A stretch of DNA of 36,336 nucleotides. It comes from Chthonomonadaceae bacterium (GTDB lineage Bacteria > Armatimonadota > Chthonomonadetes > Chthonomonadales > Chthonomonadaceae). A program made the translations under genes and the position numbers. Under the pieces are notes generated by a model. It saw only the letters and a program-made list of their open reading frames with translations. It was not told the DNA's origin and did no database searches. The DNA lies in contig DASRGZ010000170.1 of assembly GCA_035650735.1 (NCBI GenBank), positions 1-36,336 on the forward strand, written 5' to 3'. Every line of letters starts with the position of its first letter. Position 1 is the first letter of the stretch. Shown here piece by piece: positions 15,204 through 36,336 of this stretch.

Positions 15204-18002
15204 CTATCTATACAGGCGCTTATCCCGCATCGCCTCGCGAATGGTCTTGGTATCCAGCGGCAGCGGACGCACCCGCCCGTTGGGAACAAAGTCGCGCGGC
15301 GTGATCAGGAGGGCGTCAATCGAAAAGGCGTAGTTGGGCGGGGAGGCGGCGCGGTCGGTGACGTAGATGGTCAGCCGCTGCCGTTCGCCCTTCTTCAGGT
15401 TGGCCGTGCCGAGCAGGAACCACCCGAAGCGGTCGTTGAGGTAGAGCGGGCCGCGCGGAGTGGGGTCGGCGACCTCCTGGGCCGGTTCCTGGTTGATGCG
15501 CCACTGGATGGGCGAAGTGCTTGGGCCAGGCGGCGTGCCGGCCAACCAGAAATTATACCTGCCGTCGGCGGGCACGTCGAACAGATAGAACGCGCCGTAG
15601 GGAAGCCGACCGGGCGGGTTGGGCGTGGAGAGGCGCAGGTAGCCGCCCCCGCTGGCCGCGGCGTTGGGCGCGATCTCGGTGAACGTGCTGTACCGGGTCT
15701 CGCCCTCCAGCCAGATGTAGGGCTTGACATCCTGCAGCAGCTTCTCCAGCGAGGCGCGCGCGAACGTGTAGGCCGTTTCAAAGTCCTTCTGCGTCCTGTA
15801 GGCGTATTGGGCGCGATCCAGGGAGAACGCCTCGGTTTCCGCCGCGGGGATCTTTTGCGCCCTGGCGGTAGCCAGCAGTGCATTAAGCTCGATGATCGCG
15901 TCGGCAGCCGCTTCCTGTGGCACGAGCCGCTGCCCGCCCGTCTGGAAGAGGACCGGCGTTTCGTCCAGCGTGACCACGACAACCGATTTGCCCTCGACCT
16001 TCACCGGCACGGGCGTGCCGTCGGGCGCAAAGGCCCGCACCTGCCGGGCGTCCGGGCACCATAGATGCGTCTCCCGCTTGCCCTGCAAGGAGACTAGCGC
16101 CGTCTCCATCTCCCCCTCGCCCTTCTGGAGGATGTAGCCGCTATAGGAGGGCCACCAGTCTAGCTCCTCGCCGGGATAGAACGAATCCATCCACAGGACG
16201 TTAGGTGCGCCGGGCACGGGGCCAATGCGCGCGGGGCCGGGCGCAGATTGCGGGAAGAAGAGGATGCGCGGGGCGTAGTCGGCTGCGGGCGCGACCCGGG
16301 CCGCGTAGTCCTTCAGCCAGTCCAGCGAGTCGGGGTGGCGCAGCCATTCCATAGCGCCTCCCGCCGCCTCCTCCGGATTGGTCTGGAGGCCGTCGGCGAA
16401 GAATCCCTTTATGCCGACGGTACGCAGCCAGTTCAGGTCGTCAAAGAGGCTGGCGCGGCTCGTATAGCCGCCGCTGGAGGCCGGCTGGCCCGGCGGGAGG
16501 GCGGCGGTGGTCGGCTGTGGGTTGACGGCGGGTTGGGGAGTTGGTTCAGCCGCGCCGACGATCTCGGTCGCCACGCACCACATGGTGCGCGCGGCCTGCT
16601 CGGCCTCGCTGTAGGCCGGAGCCACCACGCGCGAGACGAGCGCCGCGCCATGCGCCCTGGCGGCGATGCCCAGGCCATCAAAGCCGCCCTGCGGGTCGGT
16701 GTTGCAGAAAATGGGGTGCGAGTGCGTCCAGGTGACGACGACCGGGACATCGGCGACCTGCTTCTTGAGCACGTTCGCCATTGTGTTCAGGTAGTAGAGG
16801 ATGGCCTCGTTGCGGTATTGCAGGAAATCCTGCCACCAGCGCGACTGCTCGGCGTCGAGGATGCGGTACGGGCGGTGGGCAGCCGGGTCATAGAAGTAGG
16901 GGACGCCGCGCCCGTTGGCCCAGAGCGGTACGAGCCGCGCCAGATCTCGAAGCGTCTTGAAATCGCCCTCGTTGATAGCCCAAGCCAGCTTCAGGTCGTC
17001 TACGTTCGGGTATTTGCGGGTGAGATATCCCTCCCACTCCAGCAGGAAGTTGGGCGAATCGGGGACAAGGTAATCCGACTCGTTGAGCAGGCCGAGGTGC
17101 CGGGCCAGCGGATCGAGGAAGAAGCGCAGCCCGCCGCCGAACTTGACCTGCCCCAGATAGGTGAGCACGCGATCCCGATAGTCGTCGAAGCCGGCCCAGA
17201 GGTCAGGCAGCTCGCCATCCCCGGCGGGGATCGCCTTGTGCGGGTAAAGGATGGCGACGACCTTGCCGGCGGCCTCCGGCGCGTCTATCGGGACGCTGAC
17301 GACGCCGTCGCGTACGGTGACCTGGCCGCTGCGCCCCTGGAGGATCTTGTTGTCGTCATCGGCGTCGGTCAGGATGAGGAGGGCGGTATCGGCGTGGGGA
17401 ACCTGCCAGGTCGCGCTGACACTGTCCTTATCGGCAAAGCGGTAGGCGGCGGGCTTGACGACCGTTCCGGTCAGCGGGGCGCTCAGGCCGGGACCGAACG
17501 CCAGGCCGTAGCGGAACCCGTTGGCATCCAGATAGTCCACGAGGCGCTGAAGGGCCTGGAGGGGCACGTCAGGAAGGGGCTTGCCCGGCCAGAGAAGGAT
17601 GTCCTGCAAGCCCTTGCTCTTGAGCGTGGAGAGCGCGGCGACATCTTCCTGCCAGGCGGCATCCGTGTCGCTGGCAAAGGAGCGCGGAGCGAACGTGCCG
17701 CCGACGGGCAGATAGGGCTGGCCGTCCCAGATCAGGGTTTTGGTTTCGGCGATCTGCCAGCGATGGGCCGCGCCCGTGCGGTCGGTAAAGGCGCCGGTCG
17801 TGACCGGTCGGGCCGGCTTGGGCGGCGTGGGCTCGGCTGCGGGCGGGCGGCGCTGCGCGGCGGCAGCGGGGCCGAGGGACGGGGCGGCGAGCAGCGTGAA
17901 GGCCAGCAGGCCGGAGAGACAGACGGCAGGCACGCCGCGTTTGTTGGCGGCAGCGGCACGGACAGCCCTGTCGTGTCGAGCGCATGTTTCCTTGCTATGC
18001 AT
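15204..18002 (-). CDS. Large secreted hypothetical protein, possibly glycoside-hydrolase-like with a C-terminal beta-sandwich
   Basis: Long ORF with typical codon usage; hydrophobic signal (CLSGLLAFTLLAAPSLGPAAAA); LIWDGQPYLPVGG, YLTRKYPNVDDLKLAW and WLEGE...ASGGGYL segments recall glycosidase/CBM modules. Start uncertain (GTG 18071 or ATG 18002). Confidence 0.75.
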   Translation of the reverse strand: MHSKETCARHDRAVRAAAANKRGVPAVCLSGLLAFTLLAAPSLGPAAAAQRRPPAAEPTPPKPARPVTTGAFTDRTGAAHRWQIAETKTLIWDGQPYLPVGGTFAPRSFASDTDAAWQEDVAALSTLKSKGLQDILLWPGKPLPDVPLQALQRLVDYLDANGFRYGLAFGPGLSAPLTGTVVKPAAYRFADKDSVSATWQVPHADTALLILTDADDDNKILQGRSGQVTVRDGVVSVPIDAPEAAGKVVAILYPHKAIPAGDGELPDLWAGFDDYRDRVLTYLGQVKFGGGLRFFLDPLARHLGLLNESDYLVPDSPNFLLEWEGYLTRKYPNVDDLKLAWAINEGDFKTLRDLARLVPLWANGRGVPYFYDPAAHRPYRILDAEQSRWWQDFLQYRNEAILYYLNTMANVLKKQVADVPVVVTWTHSHPIFCNTDPQGGFDGLGIAARAHGAALVSRVVAPAYSEAEQAARTMWCVATEIVGAAEPTPQPAVNPQPTTAALPPGQPASSGGYTSRASLFDDLNWLRTVGIKGFFADGLQTNPEEAAGGAMEWLRHPDSLDWLKDYAARVAPAADYAPRILFFPQSAPGPARIGPVPGAPNVLWMDSFYPGEELDWWPSYSGYILQKGEGEMETALVSLQGKRETHLWCPDARQVRAFAPDGTPVPVKVEGKSVVVVTLDETPVLFQTGGQRLVPQEAAADAIIELNALLATARAQKIPAAETEAFSLDRAQYAYRTQKDFETAYTFARASLEKLLQDVKPYIWLEGETRYSTFTEIAPNAAASGGGYLRLSTPNPPGRLPYGAFYLFDVPADGRYNFWLAGTPPGPSTSPIQWRINQEPAQEVADPTPRGPLYLNDRFGWFLLGTANLKKGERQRLTIYVTDRAASPPNYAFSIDALLITPRDFVPNGRVRPLPLDTKTIREAMRDKRLYR

Positions 18003-18071
18003 GTTGGTAGAGCTTTCGGGGATGGACCGCCTGTGGTGAACAGGCGATCCAGCGCACAGCCGGCCCGCCAC

Positions 18072-18567: not shown

Positions 18568-19065
18568 AACCTTACCCCCGGCTCTATAGCCCTCACCCCC
18601 TGTCCCCCCACTGCCAGGGTCGGCCCTGCAATGGACTGCCAGGGTCGCGCCTACAATGGCTGGGCCCCTGCTCGGGTCGGCAAGGTGCTGCAAGGAACGG
18701 GCCTGCCATGGTTGGGCCCTCTGCCTTGCGAGGCCCGTGCCTCCGCCCAGCCACACCTGGCCACAGCCCTCCGCCTGGCGAGCCACGCTGCGGGAGAGGG
18801 GAGAGGACCTCACCCCCTACCCCTCTCCTTCGTAAGGAGAGGGGAGAATTTCTCGCTCCCAGGCTCTTTCGTTCTCTTTTATCTTCCCTTCTCCCCGGCC
18901 CTTCTCCCTGCAACGGAGAAGGGGAAGCAGAAGCCAACGCTGACTCTCCCCTCCCCTGTTCTTGGGGATCGCAAGGTGTCGCAAGGCGGAGGCAAGGGCC
19001 GTAACCTTGCCGACCCTGCGAACGCAGTGAGCGAACTAGGGAAGGGGGACGGGGGGGTTAGGTCA
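18568..19065. repeat. Mosaic cluster of REP-like hairpins with nested inserts
   Basis: Several CCTCACCCCC..CCCCTCTCC..GGAGAGGGG units in both orientations; 25-bp tandem repeat at 18610-18659; GGGTCGGCAAGG...GCCTTGCGA module present as two inverted copies. Confidence 0.8.
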
Positions 19066-19112
19066 AGAAGGGCCTGGGTGGGGGCCGCGTTCTCTTCCCT
19101 GATCGTGAGCGC

Positions 19113-20894
19113 CTACATCTGCTGGGGCGCGGTGACGCCAAGCAGCCCAAGCAGATTTCTCAGCACGATCCGCGCGCCGTTGACCAGGGCCAGACGCGCC
19201 GCCGTCAACTCGGGTGAAACGGGCTCCTCCTTGCCGGGCAGAACCCGGCAGTTCTCGTAGAAGATATTGAGCAGGCTCGCCAGGTCTATGGCGTAGCGCG
19301 TCAGGCGGTGGGGCGCGTAGTTCTCGGCGGCCAGGGCGACTTCCGTGGGGTAGTCGGCCAGCTTGCGCAGCACGTCCAGCTCGCTCGGATGCGAGAGCAG
19401 CGAGCGATTGACCGTGTCGGCAGGCTGAAGTTCCCAGCCCTGCTCTGAGGCCCGCCGCCGGATGTTGCAGAGGCGCGCATGGGCGTACTGCACGTAATAG
19501 ACCGGGTTCTCATTGGACTGCTTCTTAGCCAGCTCCACATCTACCGTCGCTGGCGTCTCATAGGAGTTGAGCAGGAAGTAAAAGCGGGCCGCGTCCTTGC
19601 CGATCTCGTCAATCAAGTCCTCTTTGAGCTCGATGACGTTGCCCTTGCGCTTGCCGCCGAGCACGGTCTCCCCATCGCGCACCAGGGAGACCATCTGCGT
19701 CAGGATGATCTCCAGGTCGTCCGGATTATAGCCGAGCGCGGCGACGCCAGCTTTGAGGCGGGCGACATAGCCGTGATGGTCTGCGCCCCAGATGTTGATG
19801 AGGTGATTGTAGCCGCGCCCGAACTTGTTGGCATGGTAAGCCGCGTCGGCAGCAATATAGGTCGCCTTCTCGTTGGAGCGGACGAGCACGCGGTCTTTCT
19901 CGTCGCCAAACGCGGTGGAGCGCAGCCAGAGCGCGCCGTCTTTCTCGTAGGCGTACCCGCGCTCGCGCAGGATGGCGATGGTGCGGTCTACCTCGCCCGA
20001 CTCGTAGAGGCTGCTCTCGAAGAACCAGGTGTCGAAGTGGACGCCGAAGGCATCCAGAGCGGCCCTCTGCGCAGCCACCATTCGCTCCAGGGTCACCCTG
20101 CGGAAGAAGGCGATGCGCTCCTCCTCCGGCGCCTGGGCGTAACCTGCCCCCACTTCCGCGACGATCTGCCTGGCAATGTCCTTGACGTACTCGCCCCGGT
20201 AGCCGTCTTTGGGGAAGTGGATCAGGGGAAGCTCGCCCGCCTGGCCCGGCTGCGCGGCGCCCGGCTCGATCACGTCTTCTTCCTCATCGTTGCCCGCCGG
20301 GATCAGAACCGGATAGCCAAGCTGCTGGAGATAGCGCACGTAGACCGAGTGGGCGAAAATCTCGAGCTGCCGGGAATTGAGAGCGTCGTTGATATAGTAT
20401 TCGCGCGCTGCCTCGCCCCCTTGCGCAGCCAGCAAATTGGCCAGCACGTCGCCAAGCACGGCGGCGCGTCCGTTGACGACGTTGATCGGGCCGGTGGGGT
20501 TGGCGCTGACGAACTCGATGAGCGTCCTCTGACCGGCGCGCTGGCGGCTCGTGCCGTAGCAGACATCCTCCGTCTCGATGCGCACCAGCGTATCGTGCAG
20601 CCAGTCGGGCTTGAGGTAGAAATTGATGAAGCCCGGCCCGGCCACCTCCACGCGCGCAATAAGCGGGCTCTCCGGTAGATGCCGGAGGATGCGCGCGGCG
20701 ATGTCGCGGCTATTTTCGATGCCGGTCGCCTTTTTCAGGGTCAGGGCGATATTGCTGGAGTAGTCGCCGTGTGCTTTGTTCTTGGGCGTCTCCAGCGCCA
20801 CGCTCACCGCATCGTCAGGAAGCGAGAACTCGCCCGCATCCCGCGCCGCCAGCACGGCCTGGCGCAGCAACGCGGCTAAATCATCCGTAATCAC
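19113..20894 (-). CDS. argS: Arginine--tRNA ligase
   Basis: HGDYSSNIA, AGPGFINF, EFVSANPTGP, REYYIND, EKDRVLVRS, IWGADHHGY, NENPVYYVQYAHAR, APHRL, LLGVTAPQQM. Confidence 0.97.
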   Translation of the reverse strand: MITDDLAALLRQAVLAARDAGEFSLPDDAVSVALETPKNKAHGDYSSNIALTLKKATGIENSRDIAARILRHLPESPLIARVEVAGPGFINFYLKPDWLHDTLVRIETEDVCYGTSRQRAGQRTLIEFVSANPTGPINVVNGRAAVLGDVLANLLAAQGGEAAREYYINDALNSRQLEIFAHSVYVRYLQQLGYPVLIPAGNDEEEDVIEPGAAQPGQAGELPLIHFPKDGYRGEYVKDIARQIVAEVGAGYAQAPEEERIAFFRRVTLERMVAAQRAALDAFGVHFDTWFFESSLYESGEVDRTIAILRERGYAYEKDGALWLRSTAFGDEKDRVLVRSNEKATYIAADAAYHANKFGRGYNHLINIWGADHHGYVARLKAGVAALGYNPDDLEIILTQMVSLVRDGETVLGGKRKGNVIELKEDLIDEIGKDAARFYFLLNSYETPATVDVELAKKQSNENPVYYVQYAHARLCNIRRRASEQGWELQPADTVNRSLLSHPSELDVLRKLADYPTEVALAAENYAPHRLTRYAIDLASLLNIFYENCRVLPGKEEPVSPELTAARLALVNGARIVLRNLLGLLGVTAPQQM

Positions 20895-29052: not shown

Positions 29053-30174
29053 ATGATTTATCCGGCTTCGGCTCGCGACGCCGTCCCAACGTCACGAGCG
29101 ACGATACCGCCTGCGCTCATTGCTGCCGGGCCTGTTCCGTCTGCCCTCGATCCCGACGCCCTGTCCCCGCTGTCGGAACGAGGCGAGATGCCCCAGCGTG
29201 CGCCCCACACGACCCGCATCCTGATCGTAGATGACGACGAGTGGATACGGGATCTGCTGGCGCGCGTGCTGATGCGCAATGGCTATCAGGTGACCACCGC
29301 CCCCAGCGCCGAAGAGGCGCTTGTCCTGCTGCATCAGGCGCACTTTGACCTGCTCATCTCGGATATGATGTTGACGGGCATGAGCGGTCTGGATCTGACC
29401 CGCCACGTCGCCTACGCCCATCCCGATCTGCCTATCGTCCTCATTACCGCCCACGGCCACGCCGATCTGATGCGGGCCGCACTCCGGCAAGGCGCCACCG
29501 ATTTTATTGCCAAACCGTTTAACATTGAAACCATCCCCATCATCATCGAGCGCAACCTGGAACGTCACTCCCTGGAACGCGAGCGCATTCTGGAGCAAGA
29601 CAATCGGCTGATGTATAAGACGATCCAGGCGCTGGCTGCCGCGATTGACGCCAAGGAGCCGTTTACGGCCCAGCACTCGCGGCGGGTGGCGGCGCTGGCG
29701 GTGGCCGCCGCCAGGGTCATGCAGCTTCCCGATGCGGAGGTGCGCTACCTGGAGCTGGCCGCGCAGGTCCATGATGTCGGCAAAATCGGCACGCCCGACC
29801 ATATTCTTAACAAGCCCGGTCGGCTTAACGATGAGGAGTGGCAGGCGATGCGCCTCCATCCGGTGCAGGGCGCAGAGATTGTCGGCCGCGTCGAAGAGCT
29901 TGCCTACGTCGCCGATATCGTGCGCCACCACCACGAGTGGATCAATGGGGCCGGCTATCCGGACGGCTTGCGTGGTGAATCGATTCCTCTGCTTTCCCGC
30001 ATGATCTCTGTCGCCGATGCCTATGAAGTCATGACCTCGGATCGCGTTTACCATTCCCGCCTCCCCAGCGAAGAAGCGCTGCGCCGCCTGCAGGAGGCTG
30101 CAGGCGTCCAGTTCGATTCGGCGGTCGTACAGGCGTTCATACGGCTACAGCCAGGTTCACTGCTCCTCAAATAG
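29053..30174 (+). CDS. Response regulator with HD-GYP cyclic-dinucleotide phosphodiesterase domain
   Basis: REC: ILIVDDD, DLLISDMMLTGMSG, ITAH, FIAKPF. HD-GYP: HSRRVA, VHDVGKIG, HHEWINGAGYPDGL, VADAYEVMTSDRVY, GVQFD. Confidence 0.95.
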   Translation: MIYPASARDAVPTSRATIPPALIAAGPVPSALDPDALSPLSERGEMPQRAPHTTRILIVDDDEWIRDLLARVLMRNGYQVTTAPSAEEALVLLHQAHFDLLISDMMLTGMSGLDLTRHVAYAHPDLPIVLITAHGHADLMRAALRQGATDFIAKPFNIETIPIIIERNLERHSLERERILEQDNRLMYKTIQALAAAIDAKEPFTAQHSRRVAALAVAAARVMQLPDAEVRYLELAAQVHDVGKIGTPDHILNKPGRLNDEEWQAMRLHPVQGAEIVGRVEELAYVADIVRHHHEWINGAGYPDGLRGESIPLLSRMISVADAYEVMTSDRVYHSRLPSEEALRRLQEAAGVQFDSAVVQAFIRLQPGSLLLK

Positions 30175-30588: not shown

Positions 30589-32049
30589 TTAGAGATTTTC
30601 CTCGGTGAGGGCGTCGGGCAGTTTGGAGGATGTGGGATCCAGGGGCGTATTGATGATAGCAGAATGGAAACGCGGAGCTGAGACCACGCGATTGCGGCCC
30701 GACCGCTTCGCCTCATAGAGCGCCATGTCCGCCAGCCGCAGGAGATTGGCCTCATCTTCGGCATCTACCGGATAGGTGGCGACGCCGATGCTGACGGTGA
30801 CGCCGATGGTGCCGTCCTGCGTGTCCTGGAAGGGCGTGCGCTCCACAGCCTGGCGAATGCGCTCCGCCACCAGAGCCGCGTCGGCTGCGCCCGTCTCCGG
30901 GCAGAGCACGACGAACTCCTCGCCGCCGTAGCGCGCCGGCAGGTCGGTATCGCGCAGGGAGGCGCGCAGCACCGAGGCCAGGTGCGCTAGCAGCCGGTCG
31001 CCCATCTGATGCCCGTAGCGGTCGTTGATCTGCTTGAAGCGGTCCAGGTCCAGCAGGAGCAGCGAGAGCGGGTGCTTGTAGCGGGTGGCACGCCGGACCT
31101 CTTCATCCAGCTGCGTTCGGAAGGCGCGGTAGTTCTTCAGGCCCGTCATGGCATCGGTATAGGCCATGCCGTGCAGGCGCTCCTGCTGAAGCGTTTTCTG
31201 CAAGGGGAAGGCGCTGCGCAGCGCAAAATCTTGCAGCAGGGTACGGTTTTCGGGCGTCAGCGCGTGCGGGCGGTCAAAGCCGATAAAGAGCACGCCCACC
31301 AGCGGATGGTTGGGAAGCGCCAGCGGGATAGCGGCGAACGAGCGCACGCCGGAGACCAGGCGGGCCAGCGGCGGCGCCTCGCCCCGTTCGACATCGCCGA
31401 CATAGACGGGGGAGTAGGAGCCCTCTCTGTTCACAACGCCCGCCGCCTCGGTCGAGAGGCGGGAGTATTTGAGCGGCCCCGCCGAGCCGTTGGAGCCGTA
31501 GGCGATCAGCAGGGCCGGCGATTCGTCGCGCAGGAAGACGGCGGCCACGTAGTAGGGATGGACCTGCGCCAGCGCCGAGAGGATGATGTCTACGGCGTCC
31601 TCCAGGCTGTTGCTGGTGTTGATCCAGAGCGAGAGGTTGAGGAGATTGTCGGCCTCCTCAAGCCGCCGCGCCAGCGCCCGCTGGTTTTGCTTGAGCTGGC
31701 GCGCGTACAGGCCCCCGATGACCGTGACCGTGTTGATGACCATGCCGCGCACGGTCGCGTTGATCAGGCGCGCGATGAACTCTGCCTCCCCAATGGCCCG
31801 GACGTTGTTATGCACCACCTCGAATTCGATGATGGCGGCGCTGATCACCAGGCCCAGCACCACCACGAACTCAAACTTACAGGCCAGGATCGCCAGGATC
31901 AGCGGCAGGAAGAGCAGGGGCATCAGGGGAGAGATGCCGCCCGCCGGCGGCACGGACATCACCAGCCAGCCGCACAATAGCGCCAGGCCGGATACCAGAA
32001 GATAAGGACGCGCCGCCATCAGGCGGGAAGAAAGCCGCTGCGGTATCAT
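30589..32049 (-). CDS. Membrane-anchored GAF-GGDEF diguanylate cyclase
   Basis: N-terminal TM helices; GAF (SFAAIPL...LVGVLFIG); TDAMTGLKN, DLDRFKQINDRYGHQMGD, RDTD I-site, ARYGGEEF, LYEAKRSGRN. Confidence 0.95.
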   Translation of the reverse strand: MIPQRLSSRLMAARPYLLVSGLALLCGWLVMSVPPAGGISPLMPLLFLPLILAILACKFEFVVVLGLVISAAIIEFEVVHNNVRAIGEAEFIARLINATVRGMVINTVTVIGGLYARQLKQNQRALARRLEEADNLLNLSLWINTSNSLEDAVDIILSALAQVHPYYVAAVFLRDESPALLIAYGSNGSAGPLKYSRLSTEAAGVVNREGSYSPVYVGDVERGEAPPLARLVSGVRSFAAIPLALPNHPLVGVLFIGFDRPHALTPENRTLLQDFALRSAFPLQKTLQQERLHGMAYTDAMTGLKNYRAFRTQLDEEVRRATRYKHPLSLLLLDLDRFKQINDRYGHQMGDRLLAHLASVLRASLRDTDLPARYGGEEFVVLCPETGAADAALVAERIRQAVERTPFQDTQDGTIGVTVSIGVATYPVDAEDEANLLRLADMALYEAKRSGRNRVVSAPRFHSAIINTPLDPTSSKLPDALTEENL

Positions 32050-32208: not shown

Positions 32209-33621
32209 TCAGGAAGCGGCGGCTTTTTGGTCCGCCCTGGCGCGCAACCGCGACTGGGCTTGCTGCCATTGAATACGCACCGCCTCCGGGGAAGTTCCGC
32301 CCTGGGAGCGGCGCGTGGTCACGCTGGAGCGGACGCCAAGAACGCTGAGCGCGGCGCAGACATCTTCGCCAAGCAGCGGCGAGAAGCCGGCCAGCGTCGG
32401 GCCATCCAGGGATTCCAGGGTGATACCTGATTGTATGCAGTGCCGGACGATACGCCCCACGACCTCATGCGCCTCCCGGAACGGCAGCCCGCGCCGTACC
32501 AGGTAATCGGCCAGGTCGGTGGCGGTGGAGAAGTCGCCGGTTGTGGCGGCAGCCATCCGGTCGGCACGGAAGCGGGCGGTGGCGAGGGTGCGTTGTAAGG
32601 CCGGAAGGACCAGCCGCAGCGTATCTACGGCGTCGAACAGGGGCTCTTTGTCCTCCTGCATATCTTTATTATAGGCTAATGGGAGCCCTTTCATCAGGGT
32701 CAAAATCGCCATGAGGTCGCCGTAGACCCGGCCCGTCTTGCCGCGCGCCAGCTCCGCCACGTCCGGGTTCTTCTTCTGGGGCATGATGCTGCTGCCCGTC
32801 GTCACCGAATCGTCGAGCGCGATAAAGCCGAACTCCGGGCTGTTCCAGAGGATGATCTCTTCGGCCAGGCGGGACAGGTGCATCATCAGGATGCTCGCCA
32901 CGGCCAGGAACTCGGCGATAAAGTCCCGGTCGGATACGGCATCTAGGCTGTTCTCCAGCACCTCCTCGAAGCCGAGTTCTGCGGCCACGCGCTTCCTGTC
33001 AATGGGGAAGCCGGTTCCGGCCAGCGCGCCCGCCCCCAGCGGCAGACGGTTGATGCGCTTGCGGGCGTCCGTCAGGCGCTCGCGGTCGCGGTCGAGCATC
33101 CAGAAATAGGCCAGCAGGTGATGCGCCAGCACAATCGGCTGGGCGTGCTGGAGGTGAGTGTAGCCGGGCAGGACGGTCTCCATCTCCCGGTCGGCCAGCG
33201 CCAGCAGCGTCTCCTGGAAGGCGGCGATCTCGGCGTCTAGGGCGTCGCACTCTTCCCGCAGGTAGAGGCGTACGTCCGTCGCCACCTGGTCGTTGCGGCT
33301 GCGGGCCGTGTGGAGCTTGCCTGCCACCGCGCCGATGCGCTCGCGCAGCAGGCCCTCCACGGCGGTATGCACGTCCTCGGCGTCGGCGGGCAGCTCCTCT
33401 GCGCCGCTCTCCAGGTCCTCCTGGAGCGCCCGCAACCCGGCCACGATCTGATCGGCCTCCTCCTGAGGGAGGATGCCGGTGGCACCCAGCATGGCGGCGT
33501 GGGCGAGGCTGCCCTGGATGTCGTGCCGCCACAGCCGCGCATCGAAGGTCAGTGAGTTGTTCAGGCGCTCAATGAGGGCGTCCGTCTGGCCCTCAAAGCG
33601 CCCGCCCCAGAGTTTGCGCAC
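32209..33621 (-). CDS. argH: Argininosuccinate lyase
   Basis: [57 protein letters not shown]. Confidence 0.98.
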
Positions 33622-33630
33622 GACGAACTC

Positions 33631-34851
33631 CTACTTCCCCTGGTGCTTGAGCATCCAGTACATGCGCGATTGCAGGCCGTGCGTCTTGACGATGCCCAGC
33701 GACTCGGACTGGTCGAAGGTCTTGCTGTCGAACGAGGCCAGGTCCTCGTTGTAGAGGGCATACGGGCTGCTGCGTCCGATGACGACGGCGCTGCCTTTAG
33801 CCAGCCGCAGCGTGACGGTGCCTGTGACGCGCTCCTGAATCTTGCCGATGAAGGCTTCCAGGTCTTCCTTGAGCGGGTCAAACCAGAGGCCCTTGTAGGC
33901 CAGCTCGCCCCACTCGCGGTCCACCAGCGCCTTGAACTTGAGCTCGCCCTGCGTGCAGACCAGCGCCTCCAGCGCCTTGTGCGCGGTCAGCAGCACGACG
34001 GCGGCGGGGCACTCGTAGTTCTCACGCACCTTCAGGCCCAGCATCCGGTCTTCCATGATGTCAATGCGGCCTACGCCGTTTTCGCCCGCGATTTTGTTCA
34101 ACTTTGTGACTAAATCCAGGCCAGAAAGCCGCTCACCGTCGAGCGCGGCGGGTGCGCCCTGCTCAAAGCCGATACGCAGAAGGCGCGGCGCGTCCGGGGC
34201 ATCCTGGAGGCTGCGCGTCCAGTGGAAGATCTCCTCTGGCGGCGCATAGTCCGGCTCCTCTAGGCGGCCCCCTTCAATGCTGCGGCCCCAAAGGTTCTCG
34301 TCAATGCTCCAGATCTTATCCTTGGTCTGCGGGATGGCGAGGCCGTGGGCGTTGGCGTAGTCGATCTCTTCGCTGCGCGTCCAGGGCTCGCGGCGTCCGT
34401 CGGGCAGCCTGCGGCCCTCGCGCATGGGCGCGACGATCTCGGCCTCCGGCATCAGCGTGCGGATGACGTACTCGATGCGGAACTGGTCGTTGCCTTTGCC
34501 GGTGCAGCCGTGCCCGAAGGCGTGCGCGCCCAGTTCCCGCGCCTTCTCGACGGCCTTGAGCGCGATCAGCGGGCGGGCGATGCTGGTGGAGATGGGATAG
34601 CCCTCGTAGTCGCCGTTGGCGCGGACGGCGGGCCAGCAGTAGTTTTCGACAAACTCGGTTTTGGCGTCTACCGTGTAGTGCTCCGTGCCGAGGCGCTTTG
34701 CGCGCTCCTCGGCCTCGCGGATGTCCTCGGCAGGCTGGCCGACATCCACGGTGACGGTGATGACGTGATCAAAGCCGTATTCTTCCCGCATTAGCGGGAT
34801 ACAGACGGAGGTATCCAGACCCCCGGAGTACACCAGAACAACTTTGCGCAT
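33631..34851 (-). CDS. argG: Argininosuccinate synthase
   Basis: YSGGLDTS, ARPLIA, HGCTGKGNDQFR, SIDENLWGRSIEGG, GVGRIDIMEDR, GRSSPYALY. Confidence 0.98.
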   Translation of the reverse strand: MRKVVLVYSGGLDTSVCIPLMREEYGFDHVITVTVDVGQPAEDIREAEERAKRLGTEHYTVDAKTEFVENYCWPAVRANGDYEGYPISTSIARPLIALKAVEKARELGAHAFGHGCTGKGNDQFRIEYVIRTLMPEAEIVAPMREGRRLPDGRREPWTRSEEIDYANAHGLAIPQTKDKIWSIDENLWGRSIEGGRLEEPDYAPPEEIFHWTRSLQDAPDAPRLLRIGFEQGAPAALDGERLSGLDLVTKLNKIAGENGVGRIDIMEDRMLGLKVRENYECPAAVVLLTAHKALEALVCTQGELKFKALVDREWGELAYKGLWFDPLKEDLEAFIGKIQERVTGTVTLRLAKGSAVVIGRSSPYALYNEDLASFDSKTFDQSESLGIVKTHGLQSRMYWMLKHQGK

Positions 34852-34903
34852 TCTCTCTTCCTTAAATGAGCGCGAACAGGCCCTTCTTGACCTAACTCCC
34901 GGC

Positions 34904-35028
34904 TCGGCAGGCTAAACCCTGCCGCTATGGGGCCTACGGCCCGCTGCCCACCTACGTGGGCAGAGAAAACACCCGGCTTCTCCTCCCTCCTCTCCCGCAG
35001 CGTGGGAGAGGGGTCGGGGGTGAGGGCT
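34904..35028. repeat. Composite REP-like element between argF and argG
   Basis: Stacked palindromes CGGCAGG/CCTGCCG, GGGCC/GGCCC and CTGCCCAC/GTGGGCAG, then CCTCTCCC-GCAGCGT-GGGAGAGG-GGTCGGGGGTGAGGG; same layout as the cluster at the window start. Confidence 0.75.
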
Positions 35029-35036
35029 ATTGCAGC

Positions 35037-36335
35037 TTATAATCCTAAAATCAGGGCGAGCAGGGCTTTCTGCGTGTGCAGGCGATTTTCGGCCTGATCG
35101 AGGATGGGCTTCTTGTATGCCTCCATTATGTCGTCGGCGATCTCCTCGCCCCGGTGCGCGGGCAGGCAGTGGAGGCAGATGGCATCCGGCTTGGCCTGGC
35201 GGACGAGCTCCATGTTGATCTGATAGGGCGCGAACACCTGCGCGCGCACCTGCTGCTCCTCCTCCTGGCCCATGCTGGCCCAGACATCGGTATAGAGGGC
35301 GTCGGCTCCCTGGGCCGCCTCCGCCGGGTCGGTGACGAGGGCGATCTGAGCGCCCGTCTCCTGTCCGATGCGCTGCGCCTCGGCAATATAAGCCGGGTCG
35401 GGCGCATAGCCCTGCGGACATGCCGCCGTTAAGTTTACCCCAACTTTGGCGCAGGCGAGCAAGAGGGCGTGCAAAACGTTGTTGCCGTCGCCGATATAGG
35501 CCAGTTTCAGGTTGTTGCCAAGCTCGCCTTTGTACTCCTGAAGGGTGAGGAGGTCGGCGAACGCCTGGCAGGGGTGCTCCCGGTCGCTGAGGGCGTTGAT
35601 GACGGGGATGGTAGCGTTGGCGGCCAACTGCTCGACGGTTTCATGCTTGAAGACCCGGGCGGCGATGGCGTCCACCCAGCGCGAGAGGGCGGCGGCGACA
35701 TCGGGGACGGCTTCGCGCGTGCCCAGGCCGACGTCGGTGGGGGCAAGGTAGATGGCGTGACCGCCGAGATGCGCCATGCCCGCCTCGAAGCTGACGCGCG
35801 TGCGCAGCGACGGCTTCTCGAACAGCATCGCCAGCGTGTGGGGATAAGAAAACTGATGTGTCAGAGACCGGCGCTCTTGATGCAGCAGTTTCATCGCCGC
35901 CGCGATGTCCAGAACGACGCGGAATTGCACCGGTGTGACATCAAACAGGCTGACGAGGGATCTCTTGCGCCACTGGGCGGAATCGGCGCGGATCTCACGA
36001 AGGCTGTTAAATTCTGCCAATCGAGCAGGATCGGCTGGCGCGCGCGTTACTTCACGGGATGCCACTTCGGGGTGCTCGGCCTGGATGGCCATGACCTCCT
36101 GGCGGGCACGCTCCAGATCCACGCCCAGCTTGGCCAGCACTCTCCCGGCCAACCCCTCGCCTTCCCGGATCAGACCCAGCAGCAGGTGCTCCGTGCCAAT
36201 GTAGTTGTTGGAAAGCTGACGGGCCTCATCGTAGGCCAGATCGATCACCCGCTTGGCCCGGGGCGTCAACTGCATGTCCTGGCCTAAGCGCCCGTCGCCT
36301 CGGGTGACCTGGCGCTCGATCTCGCTGCGGATGCG
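35037..36335 (-). CDS. argF: Ornithine carbamoyltransferase fused to an N-terminal Clp_N (ClpC-type repeat) domain; 5'-partial
   Basis: Frame open to the window edge: RIRSEIERQVTRGDGRLGQDMQLTPRAKRVIDLAYDEARQLSNNYIGTEHLLLGLIREGEG, then OTCase motifs FEKPSLRTRVSFE, PVINALS, HPCQ, GDGNN, YTDVWASMGQE, HCLPAHRG, QAENR. Confidence 0.93.
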   Translation of the reverse strand, partial: RIRSEIERQVTRGDGRLGQDMQLTPRAKRVIDLAYDEARQLSNNYIGTEHLLLGLIREGEGLAGRVLAKLGVDLERARQEVMAIQAEHPEVASREVTRAPADPARLAEFNSLREIRADSAQWRKRSLVSLFDVTPVQFRVVLDIAAAMKLLHQERRSLTHQFSYPHTLAMLFEKPSLRTRVSFEAGMAHLGGHAIYLAPTDVGLGTREAVPDVAAALSRWVDAIAARVFKHETVEQLAANATIPVINALSDREHPCQAFADLLTLQEYKGELGNNLKLAYIGDGNNVLHALLLACAKVGVNLTAACPQGYAPDPAYIAEAQRIGQETGAQIALVTDPAEAAQGADALYTDVWASMGQEEEQQVRAQVFAPYQINMELVRQAKPDAICLHCLPAHRGEEIADDIMEAYKKPILDQAENRLHTQKALLALILGL

Positions 36336-36336
36336 G

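Follow-up and report, generated by a model that had tools for sequence, protein, structure and literature searches.

An ornithine carbamoyltransferase with a ClpC-type N-terminal domain in the arginine operon of an Armatimonadota bacterium

Introduction

The N-terminal domain (NTD) of ClpC is the entry gate of a protease: it reads phospho-arginine (pArg), docks adaptors and is an antibiotic target. Outside ATPases it is so far known only from small regulators or sponges such as ClpC2 and from plant ClpT, a protein that serves in ClpP core assembly. The DNA analysed here, a stretch of 36,336 nucleotides (the window) that is the whole of contig C170 (DASRGZ010000170.1), comes from a soil/mine Armatimonadota bacterium of the Chthonomonadaceae, whose genome (GCA_035650735.1; G000) is assembled in 224 contigs and is 97.6% complete. 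At one end of the window a ClpC-type NTD is joined in a single reading frame to ornithine carbamoyltransferase (OTCase), the product of argF, upstream of argG and argH. Why would an enzyme of the arginine pathway carry the receptor domain of a protease?

A phylum-wide fusion of an essentially unaltered ClpC NTD to a housekeeping enzyme of arginine synthesis would be new, both as an OTCase with an unprecedented receptor domain and as a deployment of the ClpC NTD. The architecture was neither described nor mentioned in the full-text literature searched (supplements lay outside its scope), in agreement with an earlier note on this DNA, made from the letters alone, whose author did not know the fusion from the literature. 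The fusion points to a possible connection, so far undescribed, of arginine synthesis with protein quality control. Bacteria without ArgR may here turn out to regulate the pathway post-translationally, and the fusion offers a testable case of receptor-domain redeployment.

The fused gene and the arginine operon

The fusion gene is a single open frame of 432 codons on the minus strand (35037..36335), ending in a stop codon at 35037-35039 and open at its 5' end, where both the window and the contig stop. The frame runs from NTD through linker to a complete OTCase, and argG and argH follow it. In the frame Pfam places Clp_N at residues 34-83 (E 1.9e-18), OTCace_N at 125-267 (E 1.8e-41) and OTCace at 275-428 (E 2.5e-56). 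The first 20 residues belong to the end of a preceding Clp_N repeat, and about the first 57 residues of the NTD lie beyond the contig end. Pfam finds no AAA+ module in the fusion protein, and hence neither the D1 nor the D2 module of a Clp/Hsp100 unfoldase, and it detects no helix-turn-helix or other N-terminal DNA-binding domain in the fusion proteins. The earlier note had described one frame of Clp_N, linker and OTCase upstream of argG-argH, begun by the tail of an earlier repeat and followed by no AAA+ module; frame and domain searches bear out each of these points. The features of the locus are as follows.

36072..36335, minus strand: visible part of the NTD, residues 1-88, comprising the end of repeat 1 and all of repeat 2 (Pfam Clp_N 34-83)
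35964..36071, minus strand: linker of about 35 amino acids, rich in A/E/P/R and ending in W-R-x-[KR]-S-L (frame and consensus)
35040..35963, minus strand: complete anabolic OTCase, ArgF (Pfam OTCace_N and OTCace; TIGR00658)
34852..35036, minus strand: argF-argG spacer of 185 nt (sequence read directly)
33631..34851, minus strand: argG, argininosuccinate synthase (Pfam Arginosuc_synth and Arginosuc_syn_C)
32209..33621, minus strand: argH, argininosuccinate lyase (Pfam Lyase_1 and ASL_C2)

Pieced together over the gap between contigs C88 and C170 by synteny with a genome of the same genus (G001), the operon has the order argJ-argB-argD-(solo Clp_N gene, 174 aa)-NTD::argF-argG-argH. The only in-frame candidate for an internal start that would yield a free OTCase is a TTG at 'ARLAEF', without a Shine-Dalgarno-like sequence and, judged by eye, unconserved; a second isoform beginning there is conceivable. 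The argF-argG spacer contains a short G+C-rich inverted repeat (CTCTCCC...GGGAGAG, 34990-35025), which could be a hairpin, a terminator or an attenuator.

The OTCase half scores 377.6 bits against the TIGR00658 equivalog model (cut-off 280.85) and 395.2 against NF001986 (cut-off 306), and stays under the cut-offs of the putrescine, N-acetylornithine and aspartate carbamoyltransferase models. It is the only OTCase over cut-off in the genome, the other match being aspartate-carbamoyltransferase-like and under cut-off. The motifs SLRTR, HPCQ, DVWASMG and HCLP are present; we take S-T-R-T-R and H-P-x-Q to be the carbamoyl-phosphate motifs and D-x-x-x-S-M-G and H-C-L-P the ornithine motifs. The threonine-to-leucine change at position 2 of the first motif recurs in all 12 further Armatimonadota fusion OTCases checked, which also keep HPCQ and the SMG motif in every case and HCLP in 11 (G306 has ECLP). 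Because the motifs are intact, the genome has no second OTCase and the gene sits in an argJBD-...-argFGH operon, we infer that the OTCase half makes citrulline from ornithine and carbamoyl phosphate. One genome of family f1, G378, has two OTCase genes (contigs C515 and C429, loci L154 and L155): a normal NTD-fused copy with all four motifs intact, and an unfused copy in which the first motif is SMRTR and the SMG motif is changed to SVG.

The fused domain is a ClpC-type NTD

The orthologue in G001, which is whole on a 10-kb contig, has 479 residues, one start (MWQRF) and two Clp_N repeats, and the visible NTD part of the window protein is 95.5% identical to it over 89 aa. The single start with two Clp_N repeats, which the earlier note wished to see confirmed, is thus present in a relative. 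Alignment of the G001 NTD with the Mycobacterium tuberculosis ClpC1 NTD (residues 1-140) needs no gaps (E 1e-44), and the G001 NTD matches the crystal entry of the Bacillus subtilis ClpC NTD with pArg (5hbn) at E 1e-43; matches to plant ClpT1 and ClpT2 (PDB 4y0b and 4y0c) are weak (E 8e-8 and 2e-6). A double Clp_N (two PF02861 repeats) forming one domain of about 145 aa is found in G001 and in 114 near-full-length OTCase-proximal NTDs, taken from 119 fusion proteins in a sample biased to the close relatives of the query.

These 114 NTDs match the ClpC consensus at the pocket and anchor positions T6, R8, T30, E31, H32, T81, R83, K85, T105, E106 and H107 with frequencies of 0.89-1.0. In repeat 1 the values are 0.97 for T6, 0.95 for R8, 0.99 for E31 and 0.97 for H32; on the repeat-2 side they are 0.94 for T81, 0.89 for R83, 0.96 for K85, 0.96 for T105, 0.99 for E106 and 1.0 for H107. 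Work on ClpC gives the reference positions as T7, E32, E106 and K85 (PMC12583610), the first three being pArg pocket residues in B. subtilis/S. aureus numbering. The predicted pArg pocket residues T6, E31, T81 and E106 (own numbering) are present in the window protein or its orthologue; both T-x-R/TEH motifs are kept, as the earlier note had said of the visible repeat. Extra N-terminal NTDs in tandem forms are looser (T6 0.68, R83 0.32; E31 1.0, E106 0.91), and the solo Clp_N proteins of the operon are without R8 and E106, so that both pocket motifs are partly lost. The NTDs of ClpC itself are nearly invariant across the order, and the fused NTDs of family f3 are only about 40-50% like ClpC's.

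Contig end and the integrity of the fusion

An assembly chimera of clpC and argF has almost no chance of being the explanation, although the frame does stop at the contig end, within a stretch identical to two other contigs. The two shared tracts are as follows.

36196..36336, minus strand: 141 nt that recur with 100% identity at the end of contig C199, the carrier of a third Clp_N gene (alignment)
36111..36237, minus strand: 127 nt that recur with 100% identity at the start of contig C141, the carrier of the true clpC (alignment)

Contig C141 continues into real ClpC (AAA, AAA_lid_9, AAA_2 and ClpB_D2-small). Beyond 36111 identity to clpC drops sharply to about 70%, apparently like the boundary of a gene-conversion tract. 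The assembly broke at the contig end because three paralogues, the argF fusion, clpC and the third Clp_N gene, share the identical NTD stretch. Three contig ends, C88, C172 and C56, bring different upstream regions to a common start (MWQRFTERARR) and are mutually identical over at least 135 nt; synteny with G001 assigns C88, and with it the missing 5' part, to argF. About 21 nt of the fusion gene (codons 51-57) are absent from every contig. The third paralogue, at 31160-31705 (minus strand) of C199, encodes a ClpC-like NTD and a tail of about 95 aa for which neither Pfam nor NCBIfam has a family; the 5' end of this paralogue must be contig end C172 or C56.

The diverged end of the NTD, its last helix, is encoded by argF-specific sequence itself. 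Contigs from four public runs (three studies, which may include the source sample) span 35300/35795-36140 with zero differences, covering OTCase, linker and the NTD end, and one reaches 36225, 115 nt into the shared tract. In these runs unitigs of the shared tract have about 2.6-3.2 times the word depth of OTCase-specific unitigs, and the word depths along the NTD fit one, two and three copies; such depths are indicative only and are not copy numbers. The gene is also contiguous and full-length in at least 12 relatives fetched and in 119 of 121 retrieved database proteins. The argF-specific NTD end, the bridging contigs and the whole gene of G001 together rule out the chimera that the earlier note had named as a way for its claim to fail.

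Occurrence in the phylum

The earlier note proposed a search for the same architecture in other genomes, and that search found it widely in the phylum. Within the order (41 genomes), full-length fusions occur in G001, G010, G011, G014, G017, G019, G020, G022 and G024 of family f1 and in G029, G035 and G036 of family f3; G019 and G024 have two complete NTDs in tandem. In 401 sampled genomes of the phylum, a 161-aa query across the junction matched end to end in 41, and in five further known fusions the match was split by a long linker or, in one case, cut by a contig end. The fusion is thus present in at least 46 of the 401 genomes, in eight families (f1, f3, f7, f16, f20, f23, f29 and f43).

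From a database of 5.8 billion proteins, the 120 best matches and one added cluster member were retrieved. All but two of these 121 proteins join Clp_N to OTCase: the NTD is single in 95, double in 22 and triple in 2. Named entries among them are annotated just as 'ornithine carbamoyltransferase' and come from metagenome-assembled genomes (MAGs) of Chthonomonadaceae, Chthonomonadales or Armatimonadetes. In a few, such as P0074 and P0020 with MshEN, a domain of MshEN or T2SSE-N type separates the NTD from the OTCase; the MshEN type is a c-di-GMP receptor. The protein P0023 (665 aa, on a short contig of 3.3 kb) has four tandem NTDs (eight Clp_N repeats) and no OTCase in the protein as recorded. 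A wider locus search gave one fusion among the 80 loci listed, on a Chthonomonadaceae contig, the rest being mostly ordinary OTCases, and it is uninformative outside the phylum. A full-length match in an 'Anoxybacillus' MAG proved to be merely argF adjoining a Clp ATPase gene.

An OTCase tree of 34 genomes shows fused and unfused argF scattered among one another. Four or more changes of fusion state are required by its well-supported branches, and parsimony counts eight. The tree left out G002, G009, G011, G023 and G037, which have partial genes, and G013 and G016, in which the motifs were missed by the pattern used.

Between the last NTD and the OTCase fold, the linkers of the 119 fusion proteins measure 20-189 aa (median 51). 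They are rich in A, E, P and S and unconserved save for the W-R-x-[KR]-S-L at the start of the OTCase fold. For the G001 protein, an AlphaFold2 (AF2) model based on an alignment of 79 sequences reaches a mean pLDDT of 94 and a pTM of 0.73; its last NTD helix is long (131-165) and runs into the linker, and pLDDT dips to 71 at 141-150. A complex prediction of the G001 NTD (1-145) with the OTCase part (166-479) scored 0.00 without control runs and carries no weight either way.

Selection and concerted evolution with clpC

Of the 145 NTD residues in G001, 141 are the same in the fused and the ClpC copy, yet 66 of 435 nucleotides differ. Over 138 codons there are 55 synonymous differences and one non-synonymous difference (dN/dS 0.004). 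In G017, G020, G022 and G024 the fused NTD compared with that of the genome's own ClpC gives dN/dS values of 0.05-0.16 at a dS of 0.64-1.6, and ClpC orthologues of different genera give 0.008-0.02 at a dS of 1.2-2.6. With values of 0.004-0.16, the fused NTD is under purifying selection, somewhat relaxed by comparison with ClpC.

The DNA tree pairs fused NTDs with the clpC of their own genome. They are sisters in G001 (support 98) and G024 (99) and group together in G017 (94), and in G020 the fused NTD, the genome's own clpC NTD and the distal NTD of G019 form a three-way group (94). The solo NTD of G013 likewise stands beside its own clpC (99). In these pairs ClpC sits on a branch of almost no length and the fused copy on a long one, and a genome's own clpC is the nearest of 20 for five of six testable fused NTDs, the exception being G011. 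This pairing, with the identical tract in G000, indicates either that clpC has repeatedly converted the argF copy or that the domain has been captured anew more than once.

The ClpC network, ArgR and solo Clp_N genes

A separate full-length clpC (contig C141) and clpP are present in the genome. McsB (PF00217) had no matches in G000, where the B. subtilis control was positive and McsA was not searched, and MecA (PF05389) was likewise not found there, with positive controls. Being 97.6% complete, the genome probably lacks both the known writer of pArg and the classical adaptor, and with McsB the McsB/McsA-ClpC system in its known form. The earlier note had suggested a tie of arginine synthesis to McsB and ClpCP and a check for mcsAB and clpC. 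The clpC part held good; the tie to McsB fails for G000, where McsB was not found, as it was not in the 31 family f1 genomes sampled. McsB is found in 216 of the 401 phylum genomes and in 33 of the 36 fusion genomes outside f1 (all but G193, G306 and G310), which, kin not being independent, is a pattern and not a test. In f2 and f3, McsB (16/16 genomes) lies on the same contig as clpC and within about 1-1.3 kb of it wherever both are listed. The f1 ClpC NTD is nearly invariant with intact pocket motifs, though no McsB was found in the family. ArgR (PF02863) was also not found in G000, with positive controls, and Arg_repressor_C occurs in one of the 41 genomes of the order, with fused and unfused argF alike.

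A solo, diverged double-Clp_N gene of 174 aa stands between argD and NTD::argF (C88:308-832, minus strand). A separate Clp_N gene lies directly upstream of a fused argF in G000, G001, G014, G022, G228, G332 and G342, and directly upstream of an unfused argF in G007 and G012; the genes of G001, G014, G022, G007 and G012 are orthologues of the 174-aa one of G000. Since Clp_N genes stand beside plain argF too, the link between Clp_N and argF extends past the fusion.

Proposed role and alternative explanations

The best reading, which we put forward tentatively and as somewhat short of an even chance, is that the fused domain serves as a ClpC-type receptor on a tether, linking OTCase to the ClpC/pArg network. 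A flexible tether would join the cell's only OTCase to a complete copy of the ClpC NTD, one that selection maintains, and this NTD would act as an independent docking module with the binding specificity of ClpC's own NTD. The partners docked would be pArg marks, NTD-binding proteins and possibly ClpC's own M-domain. OTCase in other organisms is a trimer; a trimeric enzyme would display three receptors, their number rising to between six and nine where relatives have tandem NTDs. Such natural arrays of 3 to 9 NTDs per presumed OTCase trimer would be useful for the study of NTD ligands. The enzyme would then be physically coupled to the network of ClpC-ClpP and, where present, McsB and pArg, and the coupling would allow arginine synthesis to be controlled after translation, through turnover or sequestration, in an order without detected ArgR. 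The sequence data establish the architecture, its conservation, the purifying selection, the retained pocket motifs, the co-evolution with clpC and the place in the operon; the binding steps and their consequences for the enzyme are inferences. The variable linker (20-189 aa) and the one to three tandem NTDs favour a tethered docking module, or avidity, over a fixed allosteric contact.

Several points weigh against a tethered receptor. With fused and unfused argF intermixed on the OTCase tree, the NTD is dispensable in many close relatives. The TEH motif in Clp_N repeats generally is partly structural. The modelled helix continuing into the linker may mean a more rigid arrangement in the G001 orthologue, neutral gene conversion could account for its concerted evolution with clpC at the level of the NTD, and the absence of ArgR is not specific to genomes with the fusion. 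To these are added the McsB and MecA that were not found in G000. The lack of McsB here is not fatal, because pArg and an intact pocket occur in mycobacteria, in which no McsB is known (PMC9604228). Free pArg, an allosteric effector of ClpC, and NTD ligands are reported to control ClpC through these same pockets (PMC12583610), and ClpC2 uses a Clp_N-like domain as a pArg-responsive switch outside an ATPase (PMC13345244).

A rather unlikely alternative is that the OTCase-borne NTDs, with the Clp_N-only paralogues, are decoys that soak up ligands of the ClpC NTD (natural cyclic peptides that target it, pArg proteins or adaptors) and so protect or tune ClpC as mycobacterial ClpC2 does, OTCase being merely an abundant, stable scaffold. 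A decoy must mimic its target, and the fused NTD does track the ClpC NTD of its own genome, at 141 of 145 aa in G001 despite 55 synonymous differences and with nucleotide identity in the visible shared tract of G000; the copy number of one to three NTDs, the extra Clp_N paralogues and the precedent of the ClpC2 sponge (PMC13345244; PMC10030653) fit as well. What a decoy leaves without account is OTCase as the constant partner and the solo Clp_N genes in the arg operons of several families, and the solo operon copies, with both pocket motifs partly lost, would be poor mimics. Doubtful, too, is the small-molecule sensor proposed in the earlier note, in which an NTD ligand would alter OTCase activity in cis. 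Its ligand might be free pArg, arginine, another phospho or guanidino metabolite or, purely by analogy of its head group with phospho-guanidine, carbamoyl phosphate. Both pocket motifs are kept, free pArg acts on ClpC through the same pockets (PMC12583610), the MshEN inserted in P0074 and P0020 is a second domain of ligand-binding type, and the AF2 helix from NTD to linker is continuous. A defined interface sits badly, however, with tandem NTDs and with a linker conserved in neither length (20-189 aa) nor sequence, and unphosphorylated arginine is reported to be inactive on the ClpC NTD (PMC12583610).

It is more improbable again that the domain is a near-neutral passenger, a duplicated 5' end of clpC that landed before argF, is kept homogeneous by gene conversion and would affect solubility or oligomerisation in a generic way at most. 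Frequent gains and losses, the gene-conversion signatures and the many relatives with plain argF are what one would expect of it. Values of dN/dS of 0.004-0.16 over a dS of 0.6-1.6, on the other hand, show long-term purifying selection on the fused copy itself; the fusion persists in eight families, including f3 with its NTDs only about 40-50% like ClpC's; and Clp_N genes have been recruited independently into arg operons. A wider proposal, which we regard as unlikely, is that Armatimonadota have made of the ClpC receptor domain a portable reader through which arginine phosphorylation and ClpC govern the synthesis of arginine. Both OTCase and the solo operon Clp_N proteins would sense pArg-marked proteins or free pArg released by proteolysis. 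Arginine synthesis would be adjusted, or the proteins degraded, in a feedback loop between arginine supply and the tagging of proteins through arginine, a loop that would replace the missing ArgR.

Comparison with known systems

The fused NTD is like that of ClpC and ClpC1 in fold family, in its two Clp_N repeats, in its ungapped alignment with ClpC1 1-140 and in both pArg pocket motifs and K85, and its own clpC is closest in DNA. In ClpC, AAA+ modules follow the NTD, whereas the fusion has a linker and OTCase and so cannot itself unfold proteins; it also carries its NTD in one to three tandem copies, unlike ClpC. The mycobacterial and actinobacterial ClpC2 is likewise a homologue of the ClpC NTD that acts as a ligand-responsive module outside an ATPase (PMC13345244), but, as a pArg-responsive repressor and antibiotic sponge, it begins with a DNA-binding HTH part, is about 40% identical to the ClpC1 NTD and offers only one pArg site (PMC13345244). 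In the fusion the order is reversed, the domain being N-terminal, near-identical to the ClpC NTD, equipped with both sites and joined to an enzyme, and Pfam gives only Clp_N and OTCase domains in place of the ClpC2-type architecture. Plant ClpT1 and ClpT2 (4y0b, 4y0c) are stand-alone double Clp_N proteins, distant in sequence and without an enzyme fusion. Compared with canonical ArgF (TIGR00658), the protein is alike in equivalog score, motifs and arg operon position beside argG and argH, and differs in an N-terminal extension of about 170 aa and in SLRTR in place of the usual STRTR. The concept resembles that of BacPROTACs and Homo-BacPROTACs, in which physical tethering to a ClpC NTD, or of two NTDs, decides the substrates of ClpCP (PMC12583610; PMC10914731). 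Those are synthetic chemical tools, whereas the natural fusion need not itself be a target of degradation.

Other features of the window

A GAF-GGDEF diguanylate cyclase gene (30592-32049, minus strand) lies 160 nt 3' of argH on the same strand, and a response-regulator/HD-GYP-type gene (29053-30171, plus strand) adjoins it; the nearness of the GAF-GGDEF gene to the operon and the MshEN domain in the fusions of some relatives may be a coincidence. Five large open reading frames (ORFs), all on the minus strand, belong to no Pfam family at E <= 1e-5.

15207-18071, minus strand: ORF of 955 aa
1501-2805, minus strand: ORF of 435 aa
4286-5578, minus strand: ORF of 431 aa
9997-11232, minus strand: ORF of 412 aa
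22628-23878, minus strand: ORF of 417 aa

Arginyl-tRNA synthetase is encoded at 19116-20894 (minus strand), about 11 kb from the arg operon, next to a CBS/DUF1385 protein and ORFs without families. At 19037-19072 there is an element of about 35-40 nt that recurs, 88-97% identical, on at least 20 other contigs of G000; it surfaced as a blastn match to the region upstream of the arg operon of G001 and may be a REP-like repeat.

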